Below, in pieces: positions 2,435-57,570 of a stretch of 64,000 nucleotides of DNA (positions are counted from its first letter, which is position 1; the number at the start of each line of letters is the position of its first letter). Made by a program: the position numbers and the translations under genes. Source of the stretch: a virus. The notes beneath the pieces were generated by a model. It was not told the DNA's origin. It saw only the letters and a program-made list of their open reading frames with translations, and searched no databases. The DNA lies in the IMG/VR virus record IMGVR_UViG_3300042691_034899, positions 1 to 64,000 of that record; one strand, written 5' to 3'.

Positions 2435-4180
2435 TTAGGCTCCTCCTTCACAGCTTGTACAATCTCCATAAGTTATTCCTGAAGCTACTGGTACAAATGG
2501 TAATGGAGAAAAATTAGGAGGGTATCCATATCCTATAACTTCTAAACAACCATTGACTGAATCGTATACCTCTCCTATTCCAAGACTGCCTCCTTGTGCA
2601 ACAATTAAAGTGGTAGTAGCTGTTCCACAATATTGAACTTCATATACTTGACAAGTAATAAATAGAAGTTTTCCTCTACATTCTCGACAACTTAGAAATA
2701 TTCCAGGGCCTCTACCTTGACCTATAAAATCAAAAAATAAATAAGTAGCTACTCCTGTAGTGTCATAAGACATTACTTCCCAACAAACCCCCCAGTTATC
2801 TTTTAATATACTTCCTTCAGGGTATTGCATAAATTGAGCAGGTACGCTTACTACTTCTACTCTATCATTATCACAACAGTTTCTTACAGTTAAGAAATAC
2901 TCTTCAGGACAAGGATTATCTGTTGTACAATTCAAGCAATTATTTTCACTTCCTGTATATACACTATCTACTATTATATCATAGTTAGTTGGTAGTGTAA
3001 TTGCTTCTCCGATTACTTTCCAACAAATACCATTAGTATCTACAAATACATCATTTATATTTAATGGAATTGTTGTAGCAATTGTTTCAAATAACTGACC
3101 ACAACATGATTGAACTTTCCAAAAATCAGGACATGGATTTGCTGTAATACAATCGTCACAATTTCCAGTAATTAAAGTATCTACAGTAATAGATTCTTCA
3201 GATATTGGTGCACTTGATTCATCTACTACACTCCAGCATAATCCATTGTTATCCACAAAGGTATCTCCTACAACTAACCCAGGTAAAGATCCAGAAACAA
3301 ATTCAACACCTGCAATACAACAAGATGATATAGTAAGATTTAACGGACACTCATTTGCCGCTTGACATTCTACACAAGAATCATAAGTATCTACAAAGTT
3401 TCTAGTAAAGTTTGTTACATCATTTGATGCAGATATTACTTCCCAACAGTTACCTTCATCATCTACATGGAAACTACCTACTTGTAATCCAGGTATGTTA
3501 ACTAGTTCTGTAATGATAGGTTCACAACAGTTTTTAATAATAAAGTTAGATTCTGATGTTTTTACAGAACAAGGTCTTTCTATGTCTAATGTATAAGATA
3601 CTGTTACTAAGTTTGTTTCAAGTGGAGGAACCTCACATTCTCCTGGACAGGAAACATCTACAATAAATCCTACAAGAAGTCTTGTCTCATGTATGTCAAA
3701 GTTAGATCCTAAAGTAACACTTGTTTCAAAACATACTTGACCTTTTTCATCAACTAAGAATGATTCTACTGGTATAAATGTAAAAGCTGGAGTTAAACTA
3801 CTTTGATTATATGTACAATCAAAATGAAATACACCTATTTTAAATGTTATTATAAAACCTCCAGCTATATAATCATCTGCATTATTAAAAAATGCTGTAC
3901 CAGAAAATGTAATTATATCATCTGGAATTAAATTAATAGGAATTGGTACACCAGCTGTTTTATCTTGTATCTTAACTTCTGGAGCTAATGAAGAATTTAG
4001 ATAATCATAAGCAAATCTTGACCATGTAGCTTGCCCGTCTGGACCATTATTACCACCATAATAAAGAACAGGATCAGGTGTTCCTACATTTATAGATGGT
4101 GACATAAAAAATGAATGTGCCGCTATCTTAGTAAACTCTGGTTTACATTCATTAGGATTTATAAAAATTTGTGTGCTCAT
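2435..4180 (-). CDS. Cysteine-rich repeat protein, probable virion component
   Basis: 581 aa with five ~70-aa units CC...CW.V...CxxC...NPCP. Confidence 0.65.
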   Translation of the reverse strand: MSTQIFINPNECKPEFTKIAAHSFFMSPSINVGTPDPVLYYGGNNGPDGQATWSRFAYDYLNSSLAPEVKIQDKTAGVPIPINLIPDDIITFSGTAFFNNADDYIAGGFIITFKIGVFHFDCTYNQSSLTPAFTFIPVESFLVDEKGQVCFETSVTLGSNFDIHETRLLVGFIVDVSCPGECEVPPLETNLVTVSYTLDIERPCSVKTSESNFIIKNCCEPIITELVNIPGLQVGSFHVDDEGNCWEVISASNDVTNFTRNFVDTYDSCVECQAANECPLNLTISSCCIAGVEFVSGSLPGLVVGDTFVDNNGLCWSVVDESSAPISEESITVDTLITGNCDDCITANPCPDFWKVQSCCGQLFETIATTIPLNINDVFVDTNGICWKVIGEAITLPTNYDIIVDSVYTGSENNCLNCTTDNPCPEEYFLTVRNCCDNDRVEVVSVPAQFMQYPEGSILKDNWGVCWEVMSYDTTGVATYLFFDFIGQGRGPGIFLSCRECRGKLLFITCQVYEVQYCGTATTTLIVAQGGSLGIGEVYDSVNGCLEVIGYGYPPNFSPLPFVPVASGITYGDCTSCEGGA

Positions 4181-20595: not shown

Positions 20596-21573
20596 ATGAG
20601 TATATCTAAAGAATCTTTAAGTAAGCTTCAAAAACTATTTGGAAAAGAAGCAGTTATGACTTTAAACGAGTCGATTAATCTTGACATTGAACTCCTATCA
20701 TCTGGATCTCTATTCTTGAACCACGCTTTAGGCGGAGGATTCCCTATGGGAAGAATCATTGAGATAGCTGGCCCAGAGTCTTCAGGAAAAACAACTCTAG
20801 CTATTCACGCTATTTCAGAAGCGCAAAAAGTTGGAAAGAACTGTGCGATGATTGATGCTGAGCATGCATTCGATAAAGTCTATGCAGAAAACTTAGGCGT
20901 GAATACAGACGAGCTTCTAATCTCTCAACCTGATACAGGAGAACAAGCTCTTGACATAGTGGAAGCAATGATTGATACTGGAGAGGTTCAGCTAATTGTA
21001 ATTGACTCTACCTCATCCCTTGTACCTAGAGCAGAGCTAGAAGGTGAAATGGGTGACTCAGCTGTAGGACTACAAGCTAGGCTATTATCAAAAGCTTTAA
21101 GAAAGTTGACAGGAAAAGCAAAGAAAAATAATTGTCTTCTTATTTTCATATCTCAGTTGAGAGAAAAAATTGGAGTTATGTACGGATCGCCAGAAGTTAT
21201 CGGAGTTGGTAATGCGCTTAAATTCTATGCCTCTCAGCGGATTATTGTAAGAAAGTCTACTCAAGTTAGTGGAAAAGATGGCAACGGACCAGAGGGCAAT
21301 CTAACTAAAGCTAAAGTTATTAAGAATAAAATCGCTCCTCCATTTAGAGAAGCTGAGTACACAATCAAATACGGAAAAGGTATTGACAAAGATGGCGAGC
21401 TTATTGACTTAGGAGTTGAAATGAATATCATAGAAAAATCTGGATCTTGGTATTCTTACCAAGGATCTAAATTAGGTCAAGGTAAAGAGAATTCACTTGC
21501 TTTACTTTTAGACAATCCAGAGCTTATGGAAGAGATTAGAGGACTTGTTGAAAAGGGACTTGCCAATCAATAA
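20596..21573 (+). CDS. recA: RecA recombinase
   Basis: [35 protein letters not shown] and KNKIAPPF motifs. Confidence 0.97.
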
Positions 21574-21584
21574 ATCAAATCTAT

Positions 21585-22013
21585 ATGTGGATATTTGAAA
21601 ATAAACCTGTAAATTCTATTGATGATATAGACCCAAAAGCAATTGGGTTTATATACATCATAGTAGATGAAGATGGTAGGGAGTATGTTGGGCAGAAGTC
21701 TTTATATTCAAAAAGAAAGCGAAAGTTTGGTAAGAGAGAAGCTGCAGCTATCACTGATAAGAGAAAGAAGACTTATGAGTATATTGTAAAAGAATCTGAT
21801 TGGCTTACTTATACTGGATCAAACAAAGAACTTAATGAAAAAATAAAAGAGGGTATTAAGTTTACAAAGCACATCCTAAAACTTTGCTACAATAAGAAGC
21901 AATTATCTTACTATGAAACAAAATATCTTATGATTAGAGAATCAATTGAGCCTGGGAATATGTCATACAATGGAAATATCTTAGGTAAGTTTTATCCTAA
22001 AGATTTACTATGA
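21585..22013 (+). CDS. GIY-YIG-like (Seg-type) endonuclease family protein
   Basis: GFIYII...YVGQK...W..YTGS...YN.NI pattern. Confidence 0.6.
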   Translation: MWIFENKPVNSIDDIDPKAIGFIYIIVDEDGREYVGQKSLYSKRKRKFGKREAAAITDKRKKTYEYIVKESDWLTYTGSNKELNEKIKEGIKFTKHILKLCYNKKQLSYYETKYLMIRESIEPGNMSYNGNILGKFYPKDLL

Positions 22014-41847: not shown

Positions 41848-41859
41848 TAAACTAGAAAC

Positions 41860-42060
41860 ATGAAGACGTTTGTAATCGTAGATGAATTTGATAATCATTG
41901 CTTTAGTAATCATGAGTTTAATTCATACGAAGATGCTTGGGATTTTTTATACGTTAAGTTTCCAGTCATTCGAAATGAAGATGGGACTCAAGATGACAGA
42001 GAAGAGGAATTAGATTCATATTTTGTAATATTAAAAACAAGTAACAATGAAAACAATTGA
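41860..42060 (+). CDS. Hypothetical protein
   Basis: 66 aa ORF. Confidence 0.55.
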   Translation: MKTFVIVDEFDNHCFSNHEFNSYEDAWDFLYVKFPVIRNEDGTQDDREEELDSYFVILKTSNNENN

Positions 42061-42403
42061 AGAAAAAAACAGAATGATTTCTGAGTTTATGGGATACGAA
42101 ACTTATGAACATACGAATAGTATATCCATAAGAATAACGGAAGGAAACGAATTTAATTCCTCAGATATTGGACACGTACATACAAAATTCCACACATCTT
42201 GGGATTGGTTGATGCCAGTAATTGAGAAGATAGAAAGGTTGGGATTTACTGTAGAGAAAAACTTTCAACCTATAGATAACGATTGGCAATGTCTAGTAGT
42301 AAAAGGTAACGATATATTGTTTCAGGAATTTAACGAGCAGTCAATACAAGCTATGCACTATGTGGTTGTTGAATTTATCGAAATGTATAACCAAAAAAAC
42401 TAG
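42047..42403 (+). CDS. MKTIEEKN/SWDWLMPV family paralog 1
   Basis: Shares three constant blocks with the next two genes. Confidence 0.75.
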   Translation: MKTIEEKNRMISEFMGYETYEHTNSISIRITEGNEFNSSDIGHVHTKFHTSWDWLMPVIEKIERLGFTVEKNFQPIDNDWQCLVVKGNDILFQEFNEQSIQAMHYVVVEFIEMYNQKN

Positions 42404-42407
42404 AAGT

Positions 42408-42716
42408 ATGAAAACAATTGAAGAAAAAAACAGAATGATTTCTGAGTTTATGGGTATGCAAGAGACTAAAATAGGATGGTATGACGCTGAAGAAAACCTG
42501 CCACTCGAATATACAACTGATAATACATTTGACGAGTTGTTATTTAATAAGTCTTGGGATTGGTTGATGCCAGTAGTAGCTAAAATAACAAGGGATGAAG
42601 AATTCATTGATGATGATTTTAGAGAATCCGTATTAGATGTTGTTGGATTTGGTCGTATAGATGATACCTATAGAGTAGTAGTAGAATTCATCGAAATGTA
42701 TAACCAACAAAACTAG
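42408..42716 (+). CDS. MKTIEEKN/SWDWLMPV family paralog 2
   Basis: Start moved to ATG 42408 by homology. Confidence 0.75.
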   Translation: MKTIEEKNRMISEFMGMQETKIGWYDAEENLPLEYTTDNTFDELLFNKSWDWLMPVVAKITRDEEFIDDDFRESVLDVVGFGRIDDTYRVVVEFIEMYNQQN

Positions 42717-42720
42717 AAAC

Positions 42721-43077
42721 ATGAAAACAATTGAAGAAAAAAACAGAATGATTGCAGAGTTTATGGGGTTCATAAAGGATGATGAGAATTTATACCTTAT
42801 AAACGACTACAGACTCAGAAGTGAGTCAGAGTATCAAGCAACTTACGTTAGTGAAATGAAATTCCACATCTCATGGGATTGGCTTATGCCAGTAGTTGAG
42901 AAGATTGAGAACATTGGATTCAGCGTGAAGATTCAGCGACTTAAGACAAGCATTCACCCTCTAGTTGAAGACAAGGAGTTGTTTGGTTTTGTGTGCGGTG
43001 ATGTATCTAAGAAACTTGAAATTACATACGACACGATTGTGCAATTCATCGAATTTTATAACCAAAAAAACAAGTAA
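42721..43077 (+). CDS. MKTIEEKN/SWDWLMPV family paralog 3
   Basis: Same constant blocks. Confidence 0.75.
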   Translation: MKTIEEKNRMIAEFMGFIKDDENLYLINDYRLRSESEYQATYVSEMKFHISWDWLMPVVEKIENIGFSVKIQRLKTSIHPLVEDKELFGFVCGDVSKKLEITYDTIVQFIEFYNQKNK

Positions 43078-43079
43078 CC

Positions 43080-43259
43080 ATGAGAATTACAGAACAACCA
43101 ATTACAGCAGATAACTTGTTTGAGCAAATGGCTCTTATGACTAAAAAGAAACTTGTTGAGCAAGGGGTATTGCCTTCTGATGCTGACAAGATTGCTATTG
43201 AGTTTGTAAAAGAACGTGGAGAAAAAGTTATTAAAAACGTAGTTAACAAAGACAAGTAA
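43080..43259 (+). CDS. Hypothetical protein (59 aa)
   Basis: Hand-translated MRITEQPIT...VNKDK; fills the gap exactly. Confidence 0.6.
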   Translation: MRITEQPITADNLFEQMALMTKKKLVEQGVLPSDADKIAIEFVKERGEKVIKNVVNKDK

Positions 43260-43516
43260 TGACAGCAGAACAGCAAGCAGAAAAACTAATTGATGAAGCG
43301 TATCAATATGCACCATCTTCAGGAGGAACAAAAGAAGCAATTTCTATAATGATTGCAATTTGGTGTGCAGAAAAAATAGCATCAAGTATTGGTTTTTCTG
43401 TTAATGATGAATATTGGTCTGATGTAATTAAATACCTAAACAACAAGAATAGTATTAACCAAAAAACAAGTAACCATGAAGAGATTCAGAACACTATACC
43501 TGATAGAACATGCTGA
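43259..43516 (+). CDS. Hypothetical phage protein
   Basis: MTAEQQAEKLI...YW..V pattern; C-terminus possibly extended by a homopolymer slip. Confidence 0.55.
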   Translation: MTAEQQAEKLIDEAYQYAPSSGGTKEAISIMIAIWCAEKIASSIGFSVNDEYWSDVIKYLNNKNSINQKTSNHEEIQNTIPDRTC

Positions 43517-46137: not shown

Positions 46138-46656
46138 ATGAAAAATTTAAATACTAATAATATCGTAAAGCTGGTTACGATAATCTTTATGATTATAATA
46201 ACAGTACTGTATGTAACTGAAGACAAAGAGAAAGTTAAGGTTATAGTAATTCAAAAAGAGGCTGTTAAAGATACAGTTGAGCATAACATTATATCAAAGG
46301 AGTCACTGATGAATTGTTTAAATGATTTCAAGGTAAAGTTTCCTCATATTGTATTGGCGCAAGCTGTTCTTGAGTCTGGTCATTTTAAATCTGATGTATT
46401 CCTTAGTCACAATAATCTTTTTGGAATGAAGATAGCAGGATCTAGACCTACAACAGCATTAAACAGTGGATCTGGATATGCAAAGTATGAAAGCTGGATG
46501 ATGTCTGTACTTGACTATGCTTTATTTCAGTCAGCATTTATGAGAAAGATAAATACTGAGGCAGAGTACTTTAAGTATTTAGCAAAGAATTATGCTCAGG
46601 ATCCTGGGTACATTAGTAAACTAAAAGAGATAGCATCAGAATGGAATCAGCACTAG
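46138..46656 (+). CDS. GH73 glucosaminidase-like peptidoglycan hydrolase with N-terminal TM anchor
   Basis: AQAVLESG, NNLFGMK, Y.SW..SV.DY and YAQDP.Y motifs. Confidence 0.85.
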   Translation: MKNLNTNNIVKLVTIIFMIIITVLYVTEDKEKVKVIVIQKEAVKDTVEHNIISKESLMNCLNDFKVKFPHIVLAQAVLESGHFKSDVFLSHNNLFGMKIAGSRPTTALNSGSGYAKYESWMMSVLDYALFQSAFMRKINTEAEYFKYLAKNYAQDPGYISKLKEIASEWNQH

Positions 46657-46889
46657 ACTTTTTCAGAAGAGGGGAATCAATACTTAGAATTGAACTCCAA
46701 GATAATGAGATTACACTTGGTGAGTATGCTGTTAAGCACTCTATGCTTTACCAAAAGGCTAAAGAGATGGATAAAGAGCAAAGAGAAAAAATATTTAAAC
46801 AAGCACAAGAATGTTCGGTTAAAGCTGACGGTGTTTATTTTAAATATGAATTTTTTGAGCAATTAGATGAAACCTTTAAATCAGAATAG
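46641..46889 (+). CDS. QTAVEWL/ETFKSE family-related protein
   Basis: KAKEMDKEQ...ETFKSE. Confidence 0.6.
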   Translation: MESALDFFRRGESILRIELQDNEITLGEYAVKHSMLYQKAKEMDKEQREKIFKQAQECSVKADGVYFKYEFFEQLDETFKSE

Positions 46890-46890
46890 T

Positions 46891-47160
46891 ATGAAACAGT
46901 TTATTTTAATAATCCTAACATTCATATTGTTTGGATGTTCTAAAGAACCTAAACAGGTTTATGATACAGAGATTAAGACTTATAGAATTAGTCATAAAGA
47001 AGAAGAGCATCATAAGCTTTCCAATGCTTACTATATACACTTTCAAACTCCAACTTCAACTGAGAGAGCTGAGGTTAGCCAATCAAACTATAATAAGTAT
47101 AAAGTAGGCGATACTATTCAAGTGTTAATTAAGTATTGGGAAAAACCTAAAAAGAAGTGA
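46891..47160 (+). CDS. Putative lipoprotein
   Basis: MKQFILIILTFILFG-C lipobox; start moved to 46891. Confidence 0.65.
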   Translation: MKQFILIILTFILFGCSKEPKQVYDTEIKTYRISHKEEEHHKLSNAYYIHFQTPTSTERAEVSQSNYNKYKVGDTIQVLIKYWEKPKKK

Positions 47161-47161
47161 T

Positions 47162-47407
47162 ATGGCAAATAAACAGCAGACAGCAGTAGAATGGTTGGAG
47201 CAAGAACTTTTAAAACCTAATATAGTTATATCTACTATAATTGATAAAGCCAAAGCAATGGAGAAGGAGCAATGTTTAAAGATGTTGCCTTATGATTTGA
47301 ATGAGTTGGCTGAAAAAGCTTGTCCTGATGTAATATCTTCTGCTCATTCAGCATATAAAGCAGGCTTCCAAAAAGCAATTGAGTTATTAACCTTTAAATC
47401 AGAATAA
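47162..47407 (+). CDS. QTAVEWL/TFKSE family protein
   Basis: QTAVEWL...KAKAMEKEQ...LTFKSE. Confidence 0.65.
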   Translation: MANKQQTAVEWLEQELLKPNIVISTIIDKAKAMEKEQCLKMLPYDLNELAEKACPDVISSAHSAYKAGFQKAIELLTFKSE

Positions 47408-47456
47408 CCACAGAGTATCATCAATGACACTTTGTTAACCTTTAAATCAGAATAAA

Positions 47457-47600
47457 ATGGAAATAGCAATAGGAATATTGATTGTAATGATGGTAATGTT
47501 GATGATATGGGGTGTAAAACTCCATTTACAAATTAAAAATAAGCTAGAACAGTTAAAAGATTTTGACACATGGAAAGAGTGGAAAAACAAACAGCAGTAG
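47457..47600 (+). CDS. Small membrane protein (47 aa)
   Basis: Hand-translated MEIAIGILIVMMVMLMIWG...DFDTWKEWKNKQQ, starting right after motif A. Confidence 0.6.
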   Translation: MEIAIGILIVMMVMLMIWGVKLHLQIKNKLEQLKDFDTWKEWKNKQQ

Positions 47601-47797
47601 AATGGTTGATAGAAATGTTGGTGCAAGAATGTGGATTAGATGACACTGGAGATTCAGCAATTTTTGTTATAGAACAAGCCAAAGCAATAGAAAAAGAAAA
47701 TATAAAAAATGCATTCTTAGATGGCTTTAGTTCTTTAGCAAATAATAAACATCAATACTCAGAAGATTACTACAATGAAACCTTTAAATCAGAATAA
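47570..47797 (+). CDS. QTAVEWL/ETFKSE family protein
   Basis: KQTAVEWL...QAKAIEKE...YYNETFKSE; start uncertain. Confidence 0.65.
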   Translation: MERVEKQTAVEWLIEMLVQECGLDDTGDSAIFVIEQAKAIEKENIKNAFLDGFSSLANNKHQYSEDYYNETFKSE

Positions 47798-47798
47798 G

Positions 47799-47975
47799 AT
47801 GACACAAGAGATGGATAAATTCCTTGACAAGCTAGATAAATTATGTTGGGAATATCACATTGAAATTAAACCCACACATCCAGTACCTAATGATGAACAT
47901 CCAACTATATCCATTATAAATGGTGATGAAGTTGTAAAATTCTTATACATTGATGGAGAGGGGATAGGTAAATAA
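47799..47975 (+). CDS. Hypothetical protein
   Basis: Start moved to ATG 47799; flanked by motif A on both sides. Confidence 0.6.
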   Translation: MTQEMDKFLDKLDKLCWEYHIEIKPTHPVPNDEHPTISIINGDEVVKFLYIDGEGIGK

Positions 47976-47993
47976 AATTTAAATCAGAATAAG

Positions 47994-48215
47994 ATGACAG
48001 TACATTCTAAAAAATTTAGAGTAGTAGAGAACAGATATGCTTTTGGTAAATATCATGTCCTATATAAAAAAGGTTTCTTCTCCAGATGGAAGTACATAAG
48101 AGCTAGTCACATAGGCTTACTAGAAGATCCAAAGCATAATCCCATATGGTCTTGGACAAGTGAAGAAGCAGCTAGGGAGTTTATTAATAAAAATTTAGCT
48201 AAGGTATGTTACTAG
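47994..48215 (+). CDS. Hypothetical protein
   Basis: 73 aa after motif A. Confidence 0.55.
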   Translation: MTVHSKKFRVVENRYAFGKYHVLYKKGFFSRWKYIRASHIGLLEDPKHNPIWSWTSEEAAREFINKNLAKVCY

Positions 48216-48220
48216 AACAA

Positions 48221-48517
48221 ATGAAAACGATAAAAGATAAGGTATTACTTTTACTAGAAAAGAATCCTCATCTAAGAGACAGTGACTTTAAACTTATTGC
48301 AAACTATTACTTCTTTGAAGTAGGCCATGAAAAGATGGCAAAGCTATCTGCAATGGAGTTCCTTGATCTCTTTGCAAAAGGCTCTCTGTCTCATTCCGAA
48401 AGTATTAGAAGAGTCAGACAAAAGATTCAAGAAGACAATCCTCATCTAAGAGGAGAGAGTTATAAGATAAGAAAAAGTGACTCGAAAGTTGTAAGAAATA
48501 ACATAAAAGATTTGTAA
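48221..48517 (+). CDS. Hypothetical phage protein
   Basis: LRDSD..L...ESIRR.RQKIQE pattern. Confidence 0.65.
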   Translation: MKTIKDKVLLLLEKNPHLRDSDFKLIANYYFFEVGHEKMAKLSAMEFLDLFAKGSLSHSESIRRVRQKIQEDNPHLRGESYKIRKSDSKVVRNNIKDL

Positions 48518-48534
48518 TTAATCTGCAAATTTAT

Positions 48535-48542
48535 TACATTTG
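48535..48542 (+). promoter_or_regulatory. -7 promoter element 4 nt before ATG
   Basis: TACATTTG-tacc-ATG. Confidence 0.55.
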
Positions 48543-48546
48543 TACC

Positions 48547-49125
48547 ATGAACAAATCAGAAAAACTAATACCCATAATCATTAATGCTAATGATGAAGGA
48601 AAGGCAATTAAGGCTCTTGTAGAAGTTGTAGAAACACTACATTTATCTCAAAACTATTTCCATTTAGTAGATCTAAAGGATAGGCTAAACGAGTTTAAAC
48701 TTAAGTTTAAATCAATAACAGATAGATATAGACAGATACCAAGCCCCAGGCCATACAATTCTCTACATGAATTAAGAATGGAGCTGAGTTTCTTGTCTAG
48801 AGATTTCTCTGATGAATTAGCGTTTGAAGTTAACAAATCAAAGATATACCACGAGGAACGTAAGACTGAAGCTAGGGCTACTGGAATGCTTGAGCTGGCT
48901 AGTGATGAGAGTTTTCAATCTAAAGTTAAGGCTTCATCGGCTTCTGCTCTAAGAGATCTAGTAGGTGCTTCAAGTGTTTATCAAGAATTTATATCACTAG
49001 CTTCTGTATCATACGGGCTTTATCAAGAGTTCCATAAAGTTGGAGATTCTATGAAATTATTCAATGATGCCTTAGCAAGTGAGTGTAGGGAAGTACAGTA
49101 CCACGATATGAAAGATGCAAAATAA
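48547..49125 (+). CDS. Hypothetical helical protein
   Basis: 192 aa ORF. Confidence 0.6.
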   Translation: MNKSEKLIPIIINANDEGKAIKALVEVVETLHLSQNYFHLVDLKDRLNEFKLKFKSITDRYRQIPSPRPYNSLHELRMELSFLSRDFSDELAFEVNKSKIYHEERKTEARATGMLELASDESFQSKVKASSASALRDLVGASSVYQEFISLASVSYGLYQEFHKVGDSMKLFNDALASECREVQYHDMKDAK

Positions 49126-49137
49126 AAACCAAACCAA

Positions 49138-50130
49138 ATGAAAGTTTTAAGTAAAATAGATAGTAAGCACTTTGTTGCTATCGACATCGAAACAGTTAGA
49201 ATAGCTGAAACATTTTCTGAACTTCCTGAAGAATTTCAGGATGCATGGGAATACAAAAACAAACAAGATGGAGAGATTCCAACTCAAGAAGAATTAGCAG
49301 ACCTTTGGAAAAGGACATCTAGCTTATACGCTGAGTTCTCAAAAGTATGCGTAGTCAGTCTTGCATTTCTAGATAAGTCTGGAGAGAGTCTTATGTGTAA
49401 AAGCTTCTCAAATACCTCTGAGAAAGAATTACTTAAAGAGTTGTCAGAATTTCTTGACAGAATTTCAAGTAGCAGCCCACATTACAGATTAATCGGGCAC
49501 GCATCGAAGTTTTTTGATTACCCATTCCTTGGAAAGCGGTACATAATTAACCAACTTCCAATACCAAGAATACTTGATGATAGTGATAAAAAGCCATGGG
49601 AAACACTTAACACATGCACAAACACGCTATGGAAGTTAGGAGGAACTGGAGCTGGATCTTCACTACAAGCTTTATGCGTATCACTCAATATTCCTATATC
49701 TAAGGTTGATATGGTTGGAGATGAGGTTGGCCGAGAGTACTTTAAAGGTAATATAGAAGGTATAACAGATTACTGCAATAAAGATGCTATAGCTACATTT
49801 AATGTACTTAGAAGGTTTAAGTATGAGAATATCTTTACTTTTGATGAAGTTGTTTACTTAGATAATACCAAAGAAGAAGCAGCAGTAGAGTCTGGAAATG
49901 AGCTTCACAAGTTAGCTATTTCTAAAGAGTTTACTGATGATATTAAAGAAGCTCTAATAAATAGATTCAAAGGAAAGAAAGTCACTAAGAAAGAGTTGGA
50001 TATGCTTCAGGATATGCTTGAGAATCTATACATAAACAATAAGATGTTTAAGAGTGATGCTCAACCAATTAAAGAAGCAAAGAGGGCTGAGGTTAAGGAG
50101 TTTATTAAAGTTTTAAAATCAAGTAAATGA
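49138..50130 (+). CDS. PolB-like 3'-5' exonuclease (DnaQ superfamily)
   Basis: DIET, GH....FD.PFL and YC..D exonuclease motifs. Confidence 0.85.
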   Translation: MKVLSKIDSKHFVAIDIETVRIAETFSELPEEFQDAWEYKNKQDGEIPTQEELADLWKRTSSLYAEFSKVCVVSLAFLDKSGESLMCKSFSNTSEKELLKELSEFLDRISSSSPHYRLIGHASKFFDYPFLGKRYIINQLPIPRILDDSDKKPWETLNTCTNTLWKLGGTGAGSSLQALCVSLNIPISKVDMVGDEVGREYFKGNIEGITDYCNKDAIATFNVLRRFKYENIFTFDEVVYLDNTKEEAAVESGNELHKLAISKEFTDDIKEALINRFKGKKVTKKELDMLQDMLENLYINNKMFKSDAQPIKEAKRAEVKEFIKVLKSSK

Positions 50131-50843
50131 AGTCAAAAGTAGTTTTACCAAGAGTTTATAATAATCCTAGTGGATCGGATAAATTCGAAAAATTTGTAGG
50201 CTTACCAAAAATAAGCTATAGCCAGATCGATAGTTGGAATAATCCTGATTATAAAGGAGAGTACTTCGAAAGTTACTTCCTTGGGATAGGTGATTCTGGA
50301 AATATATTTACACACTTTGGAAGTCTAGTAGGAGAATGGTTTGAGAAAGGTCAAGATGAGTCTGGAGAATTATCTGAATCTGATATTGAAGTGCTATCTA
50401 GTATTGGAAGGCCAGCTAATTGTGAATACGAAAGAGAAGTAGTAATCGTAAGGCCTCTTGGATATGCCATTCAAGGATTTATCGATAGGGCAAGAACGAT
50501 TGTAGATGAGTCTGATAAAAAGCAAATTGAAGTAATTGACTTTAAGACTGGGAACATTGAAAAGAAATCAAGCTTCTATGGGGGAAATGACTACCAACAG
50601 ACAACTTTATATACATTTGGTTTGATTGAAGAGGGTGAAGATGTCGTATGGTCTGGAGTTGTTATGCTTGGGAGAAATGGGAATGGATCTGAGAAATCAC
50701 CGCTTAGATTGAATGGAGATGTTTTAAGCATTGAAACGCCTTATTCAGAAGATAGAATTGATTTATTCTTTAACAAATGTGATAAGACTGTTGAGGAAAT
50801 TAGTGAATACTATAAATTTTACAATAAATTTTTTGTAGATTAA
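50127..50843 (+). CDS. PD-(D/E)XK nuclease (RecB/Cas4-like)
   Basis: SYS, FG..., GFIDR, IDFKTG and Q..LY motifs. Confidence 0.8.
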   Translation: MKSKVVLPRVYNNPSGSDKFEKFVGLPKISYSQIDSWNNPDYKGEYFESYFLGIGDSGNIFTHFGSLVGEWFEKGQDESGELSESDIEVLSSIGRPANCEYEREVVIVRPLGYAIQGFIDRARTIVDESDKKQIEVIDFKTGNIEKKSSFYGGNDYQQTTLYTFGLIEEGEDVVWSGVVMLGRNGNGSEKSPLRLNGDVLSIETPYSEDRIDLFFNKCDKTVEEISEYYKFYNKFFVD

Positions 50844-50876
50844 AAAATAATAACTAAATTTGATAAAAATTAAAAT

Positions 50877-51308
50877 ATGGAAAATCAAGAACAAATGAGT
50901 CAAGAGCAATTGCAAGAGGCAATGCTACAAGAAAGAGCAGAAATGGATCAAAAATATGATGAGCTTTTTGATCAATTAGAAAAAGGAGGTTACTTTAAAC
51001 AAACCTACGGTAAAGATAGTAGGGTTACAATTCCAGGATCTATATTCAATTCGTTTATTTACTTCTGCCACTTACAAGCAAAGCACTTACATTCAGTTCA
51101 AAGTGTATTAAATGTAATTCAACAAACAGTAACTGGTCTTGGGAACAATGTATCAGATATGACAATCCGTTTAATGGAGCAGCATAAAGAAAATGTTGAC
51201 GCTGGATACACAATTACAATGGATCAGATGGATGAGGAAGATGCTCAGGAAAATATTAAAGAGATCATCATTGATGAGAAGCCAAAACGTAAAAAACGCA
51301 AACAATAA
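50877..51308 (+). CDS. Hypothetical protein
   Basis: 143 aa after TAAATTTG (50855). Confidence 0.6.
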   Translation: MENQEQMSQEQLQEAMLQERAEMDQKYDELFDQLEKGGYFKQTYGKDSRVTIPGSIFNSFIYFCHLQAKHLHSVQSVLNVIQQTVTGLGNNVSDMTIRLMEQHKENVDAGYTITMDQMDEEDAQENIKEIIIDEKPKRKKRKQ

Positions 51309-51339
51309 TAAGAAGCTATATTTTTCTTAGGTAAGTAAG

Positions 51340-51367
51340 GCTGCCTACCAATTTGTGGGCAGCTTTT
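51340..51367 (+). terminator. Terminator-like hairpin before the tRNA
   Basis: GCTGCCTAC-caattt-GTGGGCAGC-TTTT. Confidence 0.55.
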
Positions 51368-51372
51368 CATTT

Positions 51373-51446
51373 GGTCCCGTAGCTCAGCTGGATAGAGCAA
51401 CTGCCTTCTAAGCAGTAGGTCACACGTTCGAATCGTGTCGGGATCA
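51373..51446 (+). tRNA. tRNA-Arg (anticodon UCU)
   Basis: Cloverleaf with acceptor GGTCCCG/CGGGATC, anticodon arm ACTGC-CT-TCT-AA-GCAGT, GTTCGAAT T-loop; CCA not encoded. Confidence 0.95.
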
Positions 51447-51449
51447 CAG

Positions 51450-51610
51450 CAGTTACTTGATGTCCTGTAGTACAGTAACAACCATTGGCATGTAGGGCAT
51501 TGCACGAATGGTGGCGCAAGGTAAGATGTACTTGCAACGGTGGAGTGCCGAAGACGTTATGAAACGATATGTGTGAGTGATCATGCATTGGGCTCAAATC
51601 TCCACCACTT
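51450..51610 (+). ncRNA. Candidate structured RNA between tRNAs
   Basis: Three hairpins plus a multibranch closed by GGTGGAG/CTCCACC-A. Confidence 0.4.
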
Positions 51611-51612
51611 TT

Positions 51613-51686
51613 GGATCTGTAACTCAGTTGGTTAGAGTGCAACACTCATAATGTTGAAGTCCTTGGTTCGAGCCCAAGCCGATCCA
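51613..51686 (+). tRNA. tRNA-Met or Ile2 (anticodon CAU)
   Basis: Cloverleaf with CAACA-CT-CAT-AA-TGTTG and GTTCGAG T-loop; one acceptor-stem mismatch. Confidence 0.9.
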
Positions 51687-51689
51687 CAA

Positions 51690-52000
51690 AATACCTACCA
51701 CGCTTCTGGATTGTGGTGTCCATGGTCGAGCGTACCAGGGTAGGTCTTTTGCCCCACCAACAAAACGATGTTGGAATCCTCAAGTGATACTGTTACTTGA
51801 GTTTGAACCCCCCTGTGGATAGTATCTACAGGTCAAGTACCATCAGGCATCCCAACGAACTGCTCACTTGTATGGTCTTTTCCGATACTGGGAAATTGGA
51901 TTGCTGTAATATCTGGCTGACGAGCCACACTTACTCAACCATATAACCATTATCATCCCCTAGTAAGACTGTCTGATCAACAGAAACTGCTAGGGTTTTT
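51690..52000 (+). ncRNA. Candidate structured RNA downstream of tRNA-Met
   Basis: About 7 consecutive hairpins ending in CCCTAG...CTAGGG-TTTTT. Confidence 0.45.
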
Positions 52001-52036
52001 GTTTTAATTATATATTTGATTTCAAATAATAAGTAT

Positions 52037-52555
52037 ATGAGTGTAGTACGTTTTATTGCCGATTTACATTTTGGTCATGAGAATATGGCTAAGAAACGAA
52101 GCTTTGCATCAGCAGAAAAACATGATGAATTTATTGTTCATAAGTGGAACAGTACTGTACACAAACGTGATCTTACCTATATACTAGGTGATGTTACAAT
52201 GGAAAAGGCTAATTATTCTATACTCGATAGATTAAATGGTCGGAAAATAGTCGTGGGCGGAAATCACGACAAACCTAATCATTCTCGTAAAATGCTAGAG
52301 CATGTTGATTATATTGCTGGTATGGTACAGTATAAAGGCCTCTTTTTAACTCACTGTCCAGTTCATCCAATGGAGATGGATTATCGGATTAAATACAATA
52401 TTCATGGTCACATACATGAGAAGTTAGTTGAACGTGATGTTAAGTTATTTGGCATTACTATATTTAAACAAGTAGATCGTAGGTACATATGTGTATCATG
52501 CGAGCATGTTGATTACACACCAAAGACTCTAGCTGAGTTAGGTATAAACAGATAA
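52037..52555 (+). CDS. Calcineurin-like metallophosphoesterase
   Basis: ADLHFGH, LGD, GNHD, THCP and HGHIH motifs; start moved to after promoter TATATTTG (52011). Confidence 0.88.
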   Translation: MSVVRFIADLHFGHENMAKKRSFASAEKHDEFIVHKWNSTVHKRDLTYILGDVTMEKANYSILDRLNGRKIVVGGNHDKPNHSRKMLEHVDYIAGMVQYKGLFLTHCPVHPMEMDYRIKYNIHGHIHEKLVERDVKLFGITIFKQVDRRYICVSCEHVDYTPKTLAELGINR

Positions 52556-52559
52556 TGAA

Positions 52560-52931
52560 ATGAAAATAGAACAAGTTAAAATACCAATGGACATTATTCC
52601 ACCTTCACGAGTAAAACTGGTAAAGAGTAACGGTGAAACACATTACGGAACTCAATTTAAATTTGTTGAGTGGAATGGTGATGAAATAGGTAGTCGAGCA
52701 AAGCAGATGCATGATGAGCCACAAATCGGTTACAGTGTTATAATTGATCCACAATACCTATCGTTTACTTGGCTTACTACACCTATCACAGAAATTATCA
52801 GTGATACTTCTGATAACGGATCTCGAAGCATTCATTTTAAAACTAAGAACTCAGAGTATAAATTACTTGTAGAGGAAGATGATATGGCTTTATGGGATAA
52901 TACATTGTTGGACGGATTAGAAGATTTGTAA
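52560..52931 (+). CDS. Hypothetical phage protein
   Basis: W.TT..TEI...F.T.NS.Y pattern. Confidence 0.6.
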   Translation: MKIEQVKIPMDIIPPSRVKLVKSNGETHYGTQFKFVEWNGDEIGSRAKQMHDEPQIGYSVIIDPQYLSFTWLTTPITEIISDTSDNGSRSIHFKTKNSEYKLLVEEDDMALWDNTLLDGLEDL

Positions 52932-53131
52932 TGGCAAAGATTAAGATAGAATGTGAAATAGAATTCAATGAAGACTCATGGTATAGTCATGCAGATGAAG
53001 AGGAATTAGAATGGTTTATTTCCGTTTTAAACGATAAAGAGAATACTATGGTAATACTTCACTCAAATGATGTGGGTGATACTATTGGACAGACTAATAA
53101 ATTTAAATGGAAAATACTTAAATCAGAATAA
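52931..53131 (+). CDS. Hypothetical protein ending in motif A
   Basis: Ends ILKSE. Confidence 0.55.
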   Translation: MAKIKIECEIEFNEDSWYSHADEEELEWFISVLNDKENTMVILHSNDVGDTIGQTNKFKWKILKSE

Positions 53132-53132
53132 G

Positions 53133-53360
53133 ATGAAAATAAAAGAATGGTTATATGATGTTTGCTATGATAAGCATGGTCAATACTTATGGAATAAAGA
53201 AAAAGATGGTTCTCAAATGATAGGAGAAGTCAGAGGATGGGGAGCAATACAAAAGCTTTTTAAAACAGAAGAAGAAGCAAGTAAATTTCAAGATGAAGTA
53301 GGTGAATTTATAGCACAAGCTATTAGGGAAAAAGTTGAACGGGATTTTAAATCAGAATAG
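53133..53360 (+). CDS. Hypothetical protein flanked by motif A on both sides
   Basis: Start moved to 53133; EVRGWGAIQ; ends DFKSE. Confidence 0.6.
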   Translation: MKIKEWLYDVCYDKHGQYLWNKEKDGSQMIGEVRGWGAIQKLFKTEEEASKFQDEVGEFIAQAIREKVERDFKSE

Positions 53361-53361
53361 T

Positions 53362-54051
53362 ATGAAAGTAATTGTCACAGCGATATCAGATACTCATACA
53401 AAACATAATCAAGTGTTTAAGGACTTACACAAGGGTCATATACTAATTCATGGAGGAGATTTTATGAATTCAGGGTACGAAGTTAATGAGGCATATGAAT
53501 TCTTTGATTCTTTTGATTCAGTAAAAGGCTACACTCATAAGTTTCTTATTGCTGGAAATCACGATAGAGCAATGGAGATTAATAATGAGAAGATGGTAGC
53601 ACTACTAAACCATTTTTCATCAATTACCTATCTTCAGGATAAGTCTGTCTATATTGCTGATCTAGGTGTAAAGGTATATGGATCTCCTTGGCAGCCAGAG
53701 TTCTTTAGTTGGGCTTTTAATCTTCCAAGAAACGGTAAAGAGCTACAAGAAAAATGGGATGCAATACCAGAAGATACGGATATATTAATAACTCATGGGC
53801 CTCCATTTGGGTATCTGGACATTCCAGGAGGGCAAAGTATTAGGACTGGTTGTGAAATATTACGAGATAAAGTTGATAAGATTAAACCAAAAATTCATAT
53901 CTTTGGACACATTCATGGAAGTGCAGGTTATCACTTTAATGGTCATACCCATTTTATAAATGCAGCTGTACTAAATGAAAGGTACGTTTATACAAATCTT
54001 CCTCAAACATTTGAGTGGGATAATATTACAAATGAAGTAAAATTTTTATAA
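53362..54051 (+). CDS. Metallophosphoesterase (MPPED/239FB-like)
   Basis: SDTH, HGGD, AGNHD, YGSPWQP, THGPP and FGHIH motifs. Confidence 0.88.
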   Translation: MKVIVTAISDTHTKHNQVFKDLHKGHILIHGGDFMNSGYEVNEAYEFFDSFDSVKGYTHKFLIAGNHDRAMEINNEKMVALLNHFSSITYLQDKSVYIADLGVKVYGSPWQPEFFSWAFNLPRNGKELQEKWDAIPEDTDILITHGPPFGYLDIPGGQSIRTGCEILRDKVDKIKPKIHIFGHIHGSAGYHFNGHTHFINAAVLNERYVYTNLPQTFEWDNITNEVKFL

Positions 54052-56505: not shown

Positions 56506-56573
56506 CTTGCAGGATTCATACCTTGTACGTATCTTTATAGTCCGACTTTTTTCTAAACGAAGTCGGATTTTTT
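56506..56573 (+). promoter_or_regulatory. Promoter followed by a terminator-like hairpin upstream of nrdB
   Basis: CTTGC...TATCTTTA, then TCCGACTT...AAGTCGGA-TTTTTT. Confidence 0.5.
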
Positions 56574-56592
56574 AACCTTTAAACTTTAAAAA

Positions 56593-57570
56593 ATGGGGAT
56601 TTTTGATAAGAGAGTTAGTTACAAACCTTTCGAGTATTCTCACATAACAGATCCGTTGATCGATGCTATGTGGGCGAGTCATTGGACTCACAATGAATTT
56701 AATTTTAAGAACGATGTTCAGGACTTTAAGACAAGGCTTACTGATCAAGAAAGAGGAGTAGTAAAGAGAGCTATTCTTTTGACTTCTCAAGTAGAGGTAG
56801 CTGTAAAATCTTATTGGTCTAACATTGGAAGAGTTCTTCCAAAGCCTGAGATATCTGACTTAGGTGCAGTGTTCGGTGGTGTTGAAGTGATTCATTCAAG
56901 AGCCTATGCAGAGATTTTGTCTAAGCTAGGATTAGAAAATGAATTTGATACACTATTCTCAGAGCCAGTTGTAAAAGGTAGAGTGGATTATCTTTCTAAG
57001 TATGTGAATAAAATCTACAAAGATGACAAGAAGAATATAGTATATTCATTAATCTTATTCACATTATTTACGGAGTACTGCGCTTTATTCTCTCAGTTCT
57101 ACACCATACTTGGGTTCAATAGATTTAGAGGTATACTAAAAGATGTATCTAACATTGTACAGTATACTTCAAAAGAAGAGAATCTACATGCTGAAGGTGG
57201 TATGGCATTGATTAATCAAATACGTGAAGAGCATCCAGAAGTATTTGATGAAGAGCTTACTAGTAAAATTTACTCAGAAGTTCAAGAAGCGTTCACGGCT
57301 GAGTCTAATCTTATTGATTGGATTTTGCAAGGGTACGAAAATGAATTCCTATCTCAAGATATACTAGAGGGGTATATTAAAAGAAGGATGAATGAATGCC
57401 TATCAAAAATAGGTTTTGAAAAACAATTTGAAATTCCTTCCAATATTATTGAGGAAACTAATTGGATGGAGGAAGAGGTATATGCTTCAGCTATGACAGA
57501 TTTCTTTCATAAGAAGCCTATAGACTATGCGAAAAAAACAAAAGTATTTAACGAAGAAGAATTATTTTAA
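56593..57570 (+). CDS. nrdB: Ribonucleotide reductase class I beta subunit (class Id-like)
   Basis: EVAVK, EVIHSRAY, FTE and EENLH ligand motifs; DFF..KP..Y tail. Confidence 0.93.
   Translation: MGIFDKRVSYKPFEYSHITDPLIDAMWASHWTHNEFNFKNDVQDFKTRLTDQERGVVKRAILLTSQVEVAVKSYWSNIGRVLPKPEISDLGAVFGGVEVIHSRAYAEILSKLGLENEFDTLFSEPVVKGRVDYLSKYVNKIYKDDKKNIVYSLILFTLFTEYCALFSQFYTILGFNRFRGILKDVSNIVQYTSKEENLHAEGGMALINQIREEHPEVFDEELTSKIYSEVQEAFTAESNLIDWILQGYENEFLSQDILEGYIKRRMNECLSKIGFEKQFEIPSNIIEETNWMEEEVYASAMTDFFHKKPIDYAKKTKVFNEEELF

Follow-up and report, generated by a model that had tools for sequence, protein, structure and literature searches.

The virus record IMGVR_UViG_3300042691_034899 of IMG/VR contains a short conserved sequence at the boundaries of several small genes, which raises the question of why the same word should end one gene and begin the next. 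We analysed the first 64,000 nucleotides (nt) of the record, referred to as the window, and call the repeated sequence the joint. An earlier reading of the same DNA, here the original prediction, described the repeat as a portable stop-plus-start module and a crossover point in an integron-like system of cassette exchange. The joint has a defined anatomy, is conserved at the level of DNA, keeps a fixed register to the start codon that follows it, is spread among phages, and coincides with an excess of mosaic breakpoints. We infer its function in translational coupling and the mechanism of recombination from these properties. The joint is probably a portable element of phages of Bacteroidota, in which stops in three frames are combined with a start site to couple the translation of adjacent genes, and which is also a favoured crossover for homologous recombination.

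The core of the joint, TTAAATCAGAATA, is present in seven exact copies in the window, all of them on the plus strand and at gene boundaries, as originally reported (Table 1). Shuffling that preserves dinucleotides gives an expectation of 0.04 copies; none of 100 shuffles reached seven, and none contained more than one. No additional copies were found on either strand of the remaining 17 kb of the 80,848-bp record, and near-matches with one or two mismatches occur at chance level (11 observed, 9.06 expected). The genome-wide count against a composition null thus gives a real excess, with no copies beyond the window. Four copies have a longer 18-nt form, AACCTTTAAATCAGAATA, which starts 5 nt before the core. 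The starts given previously for a 13–19-bp site fit this structure, since the first four are those of the 18-nt form and two others lie 1 nt before the core. The full element can be written as (T/A)AACCTTTAAATCAGAATAR-N-ATG and is 19–23 bases long. When the A of the ATG is numbered 0, the adenines of the joint are at positions −3, −6, −11, −12 and −13, and its last stop codon occupies −4 to −2. Each reading frame of (T/A)AACCTTTAAATCAGAATAR contains a stop codon (TAAcc, ttTAAa and gaaTAR). Six of the seven cores in the window are followed by an ATG exactly 2 nt downstream. The exception is the core at 47394, which has no ATG and is followed 48 nt downstream, in frame, by the next copy. Inspection of the open reading frames (ORFs) bears out the earlier observation that five copies supply the final codons and stop of the upstream ORF (..KSE*), and that the copies at 47442 and 47979 are intergenic.

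The joint is found letter for letter in well over a hundred uncultivated phage contigs. A scan of IMG/VR with TTTAAATCAGAATANNATG matched at least 119 contigs, and 45 of those listed have two to four copies. The listed loci and the window together contain 193 copies in 189 unique contexts, and no locus has copies on both strands. Among the matches listed, an ATG follows exactly 2 nt past the core in 181 of the 189 unique copies, the scan itself having required an ATG, and a purine directly follows the core in 185 of them, so that the stop codon is TAA or TAG. A second scan with AACCTTTAAATCAGAATA alone, which did not demand an ATG, matched at least 120 stretches; NNATG follows 150 of the 159 unique copies among the matches listed, and in eight of the remaining nine the ATG comes at 0, 1, 3 or 7 nt. 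Copies with up to two mismatches in all fetched viral loci number 232 on the gene strand and zero on the opposite strand. Five large records with the joint, four of which are 95–100% complete, have one to nine exact copies each, located on one strand and within at most 15 kb of genomes of 121–224 kb. Nothing is conserved upstream of position −20 across the copies listed.

In the genomes of GTDB, the matches with multiple copies of the joint come from metagenome bins, in which they are short contigs. One orthologous chromosomal copy, TAACCTTTAAATCAGAATAAAATG, is common to three Flavobacterium isolates (L125, L137 and L138); it is located between tandem small paralogues and may be a product of chance or of an old transfer. 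In L137 this copy is at about 3985–4005; the paralogues are about 107–131 amino acids (aa) long, end in ..EERKI.E..EK....W(E/K), and adjoin genes resembling those of sensor kinases and response regulators, and the upstream paralogue stops in frame b of the joint (..NGNNL*). Near-copies in four Flavobacterium genomes (24, 17, 14 and 9) were not above a reversed-pattern control (10, 19, 10 and 5), and a host-wide signal was rejected for this reason. Together with its spread among phages, this indicates that the joint is a phage word rather than a host signal.

The joint is conserved as DNA and not as protein, since the upstream ORFs end in three different frames inside it. The frames were counted in 254 unique viral copies with enough upstream sequence, with a threshold of at least 40 codons for the upstream ORF. 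The ORF ends at the third stop (frame c, ..TFKSE*) in 157 copies, at the second (frame b, ..NL*) in 40, and at the first (frame a) in 20. Of the other 37 copies, 17 have no such ORF, and in 20 it ends before the joint, at a distance of up to 90 nt. The 197 proteins encoded downstream fall into 112 clusters, 84 of which are singletons, and have a median length of 69 aa. Five homologues of the window's phosphoesterase in other contigs have other start regions without the motif. Therefore, the joint belongs to the junction and not to the gene. The description of the motif as a portable stop-plus-start module agrees with its fixed register before the ATG, its stops in three frames, and its tie to the junction.

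Table 1 Positions of the joint copies and associated genes in the window.
Feature	Positions	Strand	Core start	Description
Joint copy 1	46871..46893	+	46876	AACCTTTAAATCAGAATA-GT-ATG; ends ORF 46641-46889 (..ETFKSE*, TAG), starts ORF 46891-47160
Joint copy 2	47389..47406	+	47394	AACCTTTAAATCAGAATA(A); ends ORF 47162-47407 (..LTFKSE*); no ATG after
Joint copy 3	47437..47459	+	47442	Intergenic; AACCTTTAAATCAGAATA-AA-ATG; starts 47-aa membrane-peptide ORF 47457-47600
Joint copy 4	47779..47801	+	47784	Ends ORF 47570-47797 (..YYNETFKSE*), starts ORF 47799-47975
Joint copy 5	47978..47996	+	47979	Intergenic, 3 nt past stop of 47799-47975; TTTAAATCAGAATA-AG-ATG; starts ORF 47994-48215
Joint copy 6	53118..53135	+	53118	13-nt core only; ends ORF 52931-53131 (..KILKSE*), starts ORF 53133-53360
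Joint copy 7	53346..53364	+	53347	Ends ORF 53133-53360 (..ERDFKSE*, TAG), starts metallophosphoesterase gene 53362-54051
Cassette-like gene, 58 aa	47799..47975	+		Between copies 4 and 5
Cassette-like gene, 75 aa	53133..53360	+		Between copies 6 and 7
MKQTAVEWL family members	47162-47407, 47570-47797 (span 47162..47797)	+		Membrane-peptide ORF between

The host of the phage presumably belongs to the Bacteroidota, as indicated by the matches of the record to named phages, by the A-rich starts of all its genes, which lack Shine-Dalgarno sequences, and by the bins that hold the multi-copy contigs. According to the accessible part of Baez et al. 2019 (PMC6847099), ribosome profiling and reporters identified adenines at −3, −6, −12 and −13 as positive determinants of initiation in Flavobacterium johnsoniae. 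The joint has adenine at all four of these positions and no Shine-Dalgarno sequence, and thus resembles the start regions with upstream adenines, also called Kozak-like, that are described for Bacteroidia in that part of the paper. It differs from them in that the host start regions are degenerate, whereas the joint is a fixed word of 19–23 nt, which includes the upstream stops and is not enriched in the four Flavobacterium genomes. In 82 degenerate start-associated copies, 34 core mismatches are on T−10, C−9, G−7 and T−4, and only four on A−13, A−12, A−11, A−8, A−6 and A−3; AT-biased mutation may contribute to this pattern. Adenines are also present at the same four positions in two other joints, ..ACCTTTAAACAACAAGAACAATGA, which was found at several loci, and TATAACCAAAAAAACTAGAARYATG, located in the window before the genes at 42–43.5 kb. 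The setting of the joint looks polycistronic, because neither sigma-70-type promoters (46 found, 53.4 expected) nor terminators (4 found, 4.1 expected) are in excess at 44–56 kb, and only five of the 37 intergenic copies have a T-run upstream. The adenine pattern and the polycistronic setting support the reading of the joint as a three-frame stop with an optimised restart site.

Based on this anatomy, a mechanism of translational coupling can be proposed. The joint would work on mRNA, where its stops in three frames would end any incoming ORF. Ribosomes that finish the upstream mini-gene would stop within 2–20 nt of an optimised AUG, and they may restart there on the next gene. The coupling would keep a chain of small accessory genes translated inside one long transcript. 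The original prediction had named, as a finding that would count against it, that the motif is only a translation-initiation element present before core genes as well; the joint does resemble an initiation element, but it is not located before core genes.

Different phages share the same 19–23 bases between unrelated genes, which suggests that the joint also serves as a homologous crossover. The fetched loci contain 2,276 gene junctions, 164 of them with the motif. A junction was informative for mosaicism when one of its 250-nt flanks was at least 90% identical to another contig and the other flank was either equally matched or wholly unmatched. A discordant partner was found at 43 of 49 informative motif junctions. 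Among control junctions where small genes meet no more than 3 kb from a copy, the number was 92 of 182 (odds ratio 7.0 in Fisher's test, p = 1.2e-6); at junctions that involve a large gene it was 117 of 268. Of the 69 discordant pairs, 43 have a copy in the partner contig too, at the position to which the breakpoint projects. One pair of contigs shows a clean indel: at a site that has one copy in L007, L161 has three copies and two cassettes in about 480 nt. Identity in the flanks is 96.4% and 99.7%, and the alignments overlap in the motif only.

The two window genes bracketed by pairs of copies, 47799–47975 and 53133–53360, had been singled out before as cassette-like, and the bracketing is correct. 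The homologue of 47799–47975 in L068 (82% aa identity) is located between two exact copies and has another gene start downstream, and that in L176 (67%) is between a copy with one mismatch and a degenerate copy, with other genes on both sides. The homologue of 53133–53360 in L081 (60.5% aa identity) is between two exact copies among other neighbours, and more distant homologues (L135 and L179) are without the motif. L176 is the closest relative, a complete 124-kb genome with core proteins 69–86% identical. Its homologue of ORF 52931–53131 is in the upstream motif-flanked cluster, directly after the homologue of 47799–47975, and ends in ..DFKYEII* without the ..LKSE tail, which indicates that the tail of 52931–53131 was acquired. 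L176, L177 and L188 differ in the genes that they contain between conserved anchors. Ordinary homologous recombination, for which the phage encodes RecA, would be favoured at the joint without being exclusive to it, and could shuffle, delete or relocate single genes without breaking their expression.

Several findings weigh against this reading of the joint. Start regions with the motif are no less folded than others (p = 0.65 in the window, p = 0.35 in the loci), and reduced RNA structure at these starts was rejected as an explanation. The letters other than A (C−9, G−7, TTT and CC) are conserved beyond the need of a generic A-rich start. The p-value of the mosaic test overstates independence, since the pairs are related and were selected by the motif. 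A catalogue of 113 indels and replacements of at least 80 nt between contigs at least 88% identical, in which copies with up to two mismatches were allowed, contains 92 events that touch no copy, 17 with one end at a copy and 4 with both ends. Of these four, a single event is bounded by exact copies on both sides, and two are at the same site with degenerate copies. L177 and L188 (66–70% aa identity) contain neither the motif nor the MKQTAVEWL family, described below, between the same conserved anchors, which shows that the joint is dispensable for the lineage. In four metagenome runs, for which assembled contigs only were used, the contigs of the phage itself show the same arrangement as the window at copies 2–3 and 6–7, and no excised or empty-site form of this phage was seen; many contig joints with short sides (18–37 nt) in these runs come from other phages with the same joint or family blocks. 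The joint is therefore a hot junction per site, yet it accounts for a minority of events. The earlier designation of the motif as a crossover point stands as far as the mosaic junctions, the indel between L161 and L007, and the relocated cassettes are concerned, and is weakened by the finding that only 21 of the 113 events touch a copy.

The constancy of the letters other than A, and the lack of enrichment of the word in the four Flavobacterium genomes, indicate that something beyond host ribosome preference fixes the word. We speculate that the joint is a standard connector of an accessory-gene pool that is common to unrelated freshwater phages of Bacteroidota, with its letters kept for exchangeability as well as translation, and with several such words in coexistence. 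This extension is possible, and we offer it as tentative. Unrelated phages would keep the word because any gene bearing it could be inserted by homologous recombination into the array of any other phage and expressed at once. The connector would be a functional equivalent of the integron that operates without an integrase. The coexisting words would be TFKSE*/M, KQQEQ*/M and the second joint at 42–43.5 kb.

The same constancy is what speaks for the joint being the operator of a trans-acting factor, such as a translational repressor or activator, or an endoribonuclease that cuts polycistronic mRNA, controlling an accessory regulon. RegA and RegB of phage T4 are analogues of such factors. An operator would explain why non-adenine positions are conserved letter for letter, why the word is not used above control level by the four Flavobacterium genomes, and why each phage genome has a small clustered set of copies. 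The MKQTAVEWL family, which co-occurs with the motif in 91 of 154 loci, could in principle provide the factor. We nevertheless consider an operator unlikely. The analysis yielded no candidate for the factor. Structure prediction gives the family protein as a simple hairpin of two helices, which has no PDB match at E ≤ 0.001 and no match in Pfam or PHROG, and the co-occurrence of the family with the motif is largely explained by the motif being the 3′ end of the family's own genes. In RNAduplex, the motif RNA paired at −12.1 kcal/mol with 16S rRNA from one Flavobacterium genome, which may not be that of the host; the pairing was equalled by 36% of shuffles for the whole rRNA (p = 0.36) and by 24% for its 3′ tail (p = 0.24). 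Pairing with the ORF-free region of the phage at 51.3–52.0 kb was equalled by 83% of shuffles (p = 0.83). Both pairings were rejected, although for the rRNA this is a weak negative. The genome contains no antisense copy of the motif, and the motif has no match in Rfam.

It is also quite improbable that the joint is a promoter, recognised either by the RNA polymerase of the host after modification by the phage or by one of the phage's own, from which transcription would start 0–3 nt before the ATG and produce a near-leaderless mRNA for each mini-gene. The joint has the appearance of such a promoter: it extends over about 20 contiguous nt, is asymmetric and letter-perfect, and is present in one orientation before genes. 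The promoters of single-subunit RNA polymerases and the repeated early promoters of phages are similar contiguous sites in one orientation. A few copies are located after the 3′ end of a tRNA or after a hairpin with a T-run (L003, L154 and L062), where a restart of transcription would be sensible. However, 217 of the 254 copies reach into the preceding coding sequence at its end, tandem copies are only 48–230 nt apart, and the matches listed have no conservation upstream of −20. Promoters of Bacteroidota have a TTTG element at −33 and TAnnTTTG at −7, neither of which is visible in the motif by inspection. No match to sigma-70 region 2 was found in the record, which is 53% complete, and the one to nine exact copies within 15 kb of the complete genomes are few for a promoter class. 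The accessible text on halovirus HF2 provides a precedent of intergenic repeats that carry promoters (PMC8707807), whereas the transcripts of F. johnsoniae are mostly leadered according to the available portion of PMC6847099.

A dedicated, integron-like site-specific system, which would insert and excise single-gene cassettes at the motif and is the strong form of the original prediction, is very unlikely. Integrons consist of the integrase IntI, attC and attI sites, and promoterless single-gene units with a conserved 3′ site in an array of one orientation. The joint array is like an integron in its promoterless single-gene units, conserved site at the 3′ end and single orientation. In addition, genes are bracketed by two copies, the same gene occurs between copies in differing contexts, the indel between L161 and L007 runs from motif to motif, and tiny remnants separate neighbouring copies both at 47394/47442 in the window and at 3502/3577 in L176. 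It is unlike an integron in that integrons have an IntI-type integrase and a folded palindrome of the attC type, whereas the joint has translational register and exchange that looks homologous. Neither Phage_integrase (PF00589) nor Resolvase (PF00239) has a match above cut-off in this record, 53% complete, or in any of the five large motif-bearing records, of which four are 95–100% complete. The motif has no inverted repeat and, with its flanks, no hairpin potential, its minimum free energy as single-stranded DNA being 0 kcal/mol, unlike that of attC. The site is locked to start and stop codons, which is needless for a recombination site. The gradual decay of copies and the partial motifs left after crossovers, such as the bare core at 53118, fit homologous rather than site-specific exchange, and 92 of the 113 indels are elsewhere. 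The integron-like part of the original prediction is not upheld in the absence of tyrosine and serine recombinases above cut-off and of a hairpin at the site.

The joint is found most often at the 3′ end of genes for one family of small proteins, with the pattern MKQTAVEWL...EQAKEMEKEQ...YYNETFKSE; this family accounts for 116 of 187 upstream proteins. The proteins upstream of the joint had been described as unrelated; this is incorrect for ORFs 47162–47407 and 47570–47797, which belong to the one family, and for ORF 46641–46889, which shares its middle and end, so that not all upstream proteins are unrelated. The family was re-sampled through its N-terminal and middle blocks only, which avoids ascertainment by the motif and yielded 73 unique genes. 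The 3′ end contains the exact 13-nt core in 19 of these and the exact 18-mer in 15. The proteins of 57 genes end in something other than TFKSE, such as ..YYNETFNK, ..ETFGK or ..ETFKQ. The full joint is thus carried by about a quarter of family members. The re-sampled genes that end in TFKSE use TTT AAA TCA GAA in 16 of 16 cases and ACC for threonine in 14 of 16, and all 16 are followed by N-ATG. Elsewhere in family genes of the motif-selected loci, TCA accounts for 34% of serine codons and ACC for 6% of threonine codons. The invariant codons indicate that the peptide follows from the DNA word. Selection at the protein level for a ..TFKSE C-terminus, which might be a tag or a peptide for binding and would have only an incidental link to the start codon, is extremely improbable and is refuted as the sole cause by the frame counts and the invariant codons: although 157 of the 254 copies encode ..(T)FKSE* and the family keeps ..YYNET(F/Y)K even without the motif, 60 copies end ORFs in other frames, 37 are intergenic or lack an ORF of at least 40 codons, synonymous variation among the independently sampled TFKSE-enders is zero, and conservation extends past the stop codon, taking in the N-ATG as well as the purine next to the core. 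The 5′ half of the joint (..GAA ACC TTT AAA) probably derives from the conserved ..ETFK coding end of the family.

The family proteins are 60–95 aa long and consist of constant blocks with hypervariable segments between them. At least 600 stretches match the family, and 333 of those listed encode relatives. The model of the predicted hairpin has a pLDDT of 84.6. The 120 listed of 161 matches at E ≤ 0.001 are without a Pfam domain and are mostly nameless or annotated as 'hypothetical protein'. Some family members (L152, L031, L052, L050 and L053) end in the sister joint ..ACCTTTAAACAACAAGAACAATGA (..TFKQQEQ*), in which the stop codon overlaps the next ATG; the sister joint and the main joint have a common 5′ half, AACCTTTAAA.

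In comparison with known phage repeats, the joint appears to share the logic of two systems and to be a member of neither. The Start-Associated Sequences (SAS) of Cluster K mycobacteriophages are asymmetric 13-bp repeats with about 11–19 copies per genome, the function of which is unproven and is thought to be in translation initiation, as stated in the accessible portion of Pope et al. 2011 (PMC3203893). The joint is like the SAS described there in its single orientation, its restriction to the non-structural half of the genome, and its position a few bases before starts that are mostly ATG. Also common to both are the various families downstream, an upstream stop that is sometimes inside the repeat, and absence from host genomes. 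The SAS consensus GGGATAGGAGCCC contains the Shine-Dalgarno core AGGAG, whereas the joint lacks a Shine-Dalgarno sequence and fits the adenine pattern of Bacteroidia. The distance to the start is 3–7 bp for SAS and a fixed 2 nt for the joint. Half of the SAS sites are accompanied by 17-bp inverted repeats (ESAS), and none are conserved upstream of the joint. SAS are confined to one phage cluster, whereas the joint is common to well over a hundred viral contigs. The joint has stops in three frames, and a role in recombination is not claimed for SAS in that portion of the source. The literature on the term 'start-associated sequence' concerns mostly mycobacteriophages; a literature search found no description of such joints in phages of Bacteroidota, and the exact 13-mer was found only in one unrelated Borrelia paper, as far as the text accessible to searching extends.

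The second system is the promoter-early stem-loop (PeSL) of T4-type phages, a regulatory repeat of hyperplastic regions associated with modular shuffling and mini-circles in the accessible parts of Arbiol et al. 2010 (PMC2839356) and Comeau et al. 2014 (PMC4122927). Like the joint, PeSLs are short repeats between small non-essential ORFs in hyperplastic regions and act as points of homologous exchange, and insertions, deletions and replacements between related phages fall at the repeats, although for the joint only 21 of the 113 events do so. As presented in these sources, a PeSL is intergenic and consists of a sigma-70-like promoter and a terminator stem-loop, whereas the joint has no stem-loop and no signature of a promoter or terminator. 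Unlike PeSLs, the joint extends into the 3′ end of the preceding gene and keeps a fixed distance to the next start codon, which points to an action in translation rather than transcription. The mini-circles of PeSLs were demonstrated physically.

If the proposed function is correct, a defined 23-nt coupling element with stops in three frames could keep chains of tiny genes translated in Bacteroidia, which are blind to Shine-Dalgarno sequences. A shared micro-homology that also ensures expression could move accessory genes between unrelated phages without integrases. The ideas of repeat linkers, from PeSL, and of start repeats, from SAS, would be extended to a large group of uncultivated aquatic phages, and expression work in Flavobacterium and Bacteroides would gain a bicistronic connector that is ready for use. 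The joint does not imply a new kind of recombination machinery; it is set apart by a word that is fixed and widespread, and by an unusually explicit design of three stops combined with the adenine pattern of Bacteroidia.

The record is a linear fragment with 34% G+C, estimated by CheckV to be 53% complete. Genes of the size expected for virion proteins are on the minus strand at both ends, and a long block on the plus strand at 19.6–61.3 kb contains replication and accessory genes. Annotated products include RecA (gene at 20596–21573), a SegE-like GIY-YIG endonuclease, a chaperonin, thymidylate synthase, a PolB-exonuclease-like protein, a PD-(D/E)XK nuclease and a helicase. The gene of the SegE-like GIY-YIG homing endonuclease (21585–22013; PF19835, E = 1e-22) directly follows recA. 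The surroundings of the motif consist of very small ORFs, and only a glucosaminidase or endolysin-like protein (46138–46656) and the metallophosphoesterase next to copy 7 have family matches. An Rfam scan of 44–56 kb identified two tRNAs and no other family. The record has no close DNA relatives among named phages, the best matches spanning 1–2% of the query; these consist of tRNA genes and two short gene fragments, one from a Flavobacterium phage and one from a Bacteroides phage. A search for closer relatives with a 192-aa gene matched nothing in metagenome or viral contigs, and an alignment query for relatives of the window led to one locus, L188.

Copies 2 and 3 are separated by an in-frame stretch of 35 nt that resembles the tail of a lost cassette (..DTLLTFKSE*). 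For the spacer between them the folding energy is −2.6 kcal/mol, a value reached by 150 of 200 shuffles; the hairpin of an 'empty cassette' at this site was therefore rejected. The gap of 75 nt that separates two joint copies in L176 is taken up by a mini-ORF of 20 codons (MRLKSENEEQPLVVIEFINL*, 3517–3579), which ends at the frame-b stop of the second copy and resembles the 35-nt remnant of the window.

The second joint word of the window, at 41849–43480, precedes at least five consecutive starts (41860, 42408, 42721, the 43083 region and 43476) in the forms TATAACCAAAAAAACTAGAA(A/G)(C/T)ATG and ..AACCAAAAAACAAGTAACCATG. Its design is like that of the main joint, with an AACC box, an A-run, a stop and an ATG, and with adenines at −3, −6, −12 and −13. 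At 56557–56595, a T-run is followed by AACCTTTAAAC, the 5′ half of the joint with other spacing, before the start of the ribonucleotide reductase beta gene at 56593. In L003 (about 1100–1185) and L062, a joint copy is located directly after an apparent tRNA 3′ end (..GGTTCGAATCC..), with a T-run between them in L003, so that the joint can follow a structured RNA gene. In the metagenome runs X2, X3, X6 and X8, the summed contig depth at the family blocks and joints of 46737–47921 is 10–300 times that of the phage's own contigs, and many other contigs in these metagenomes contain identical short blocks.

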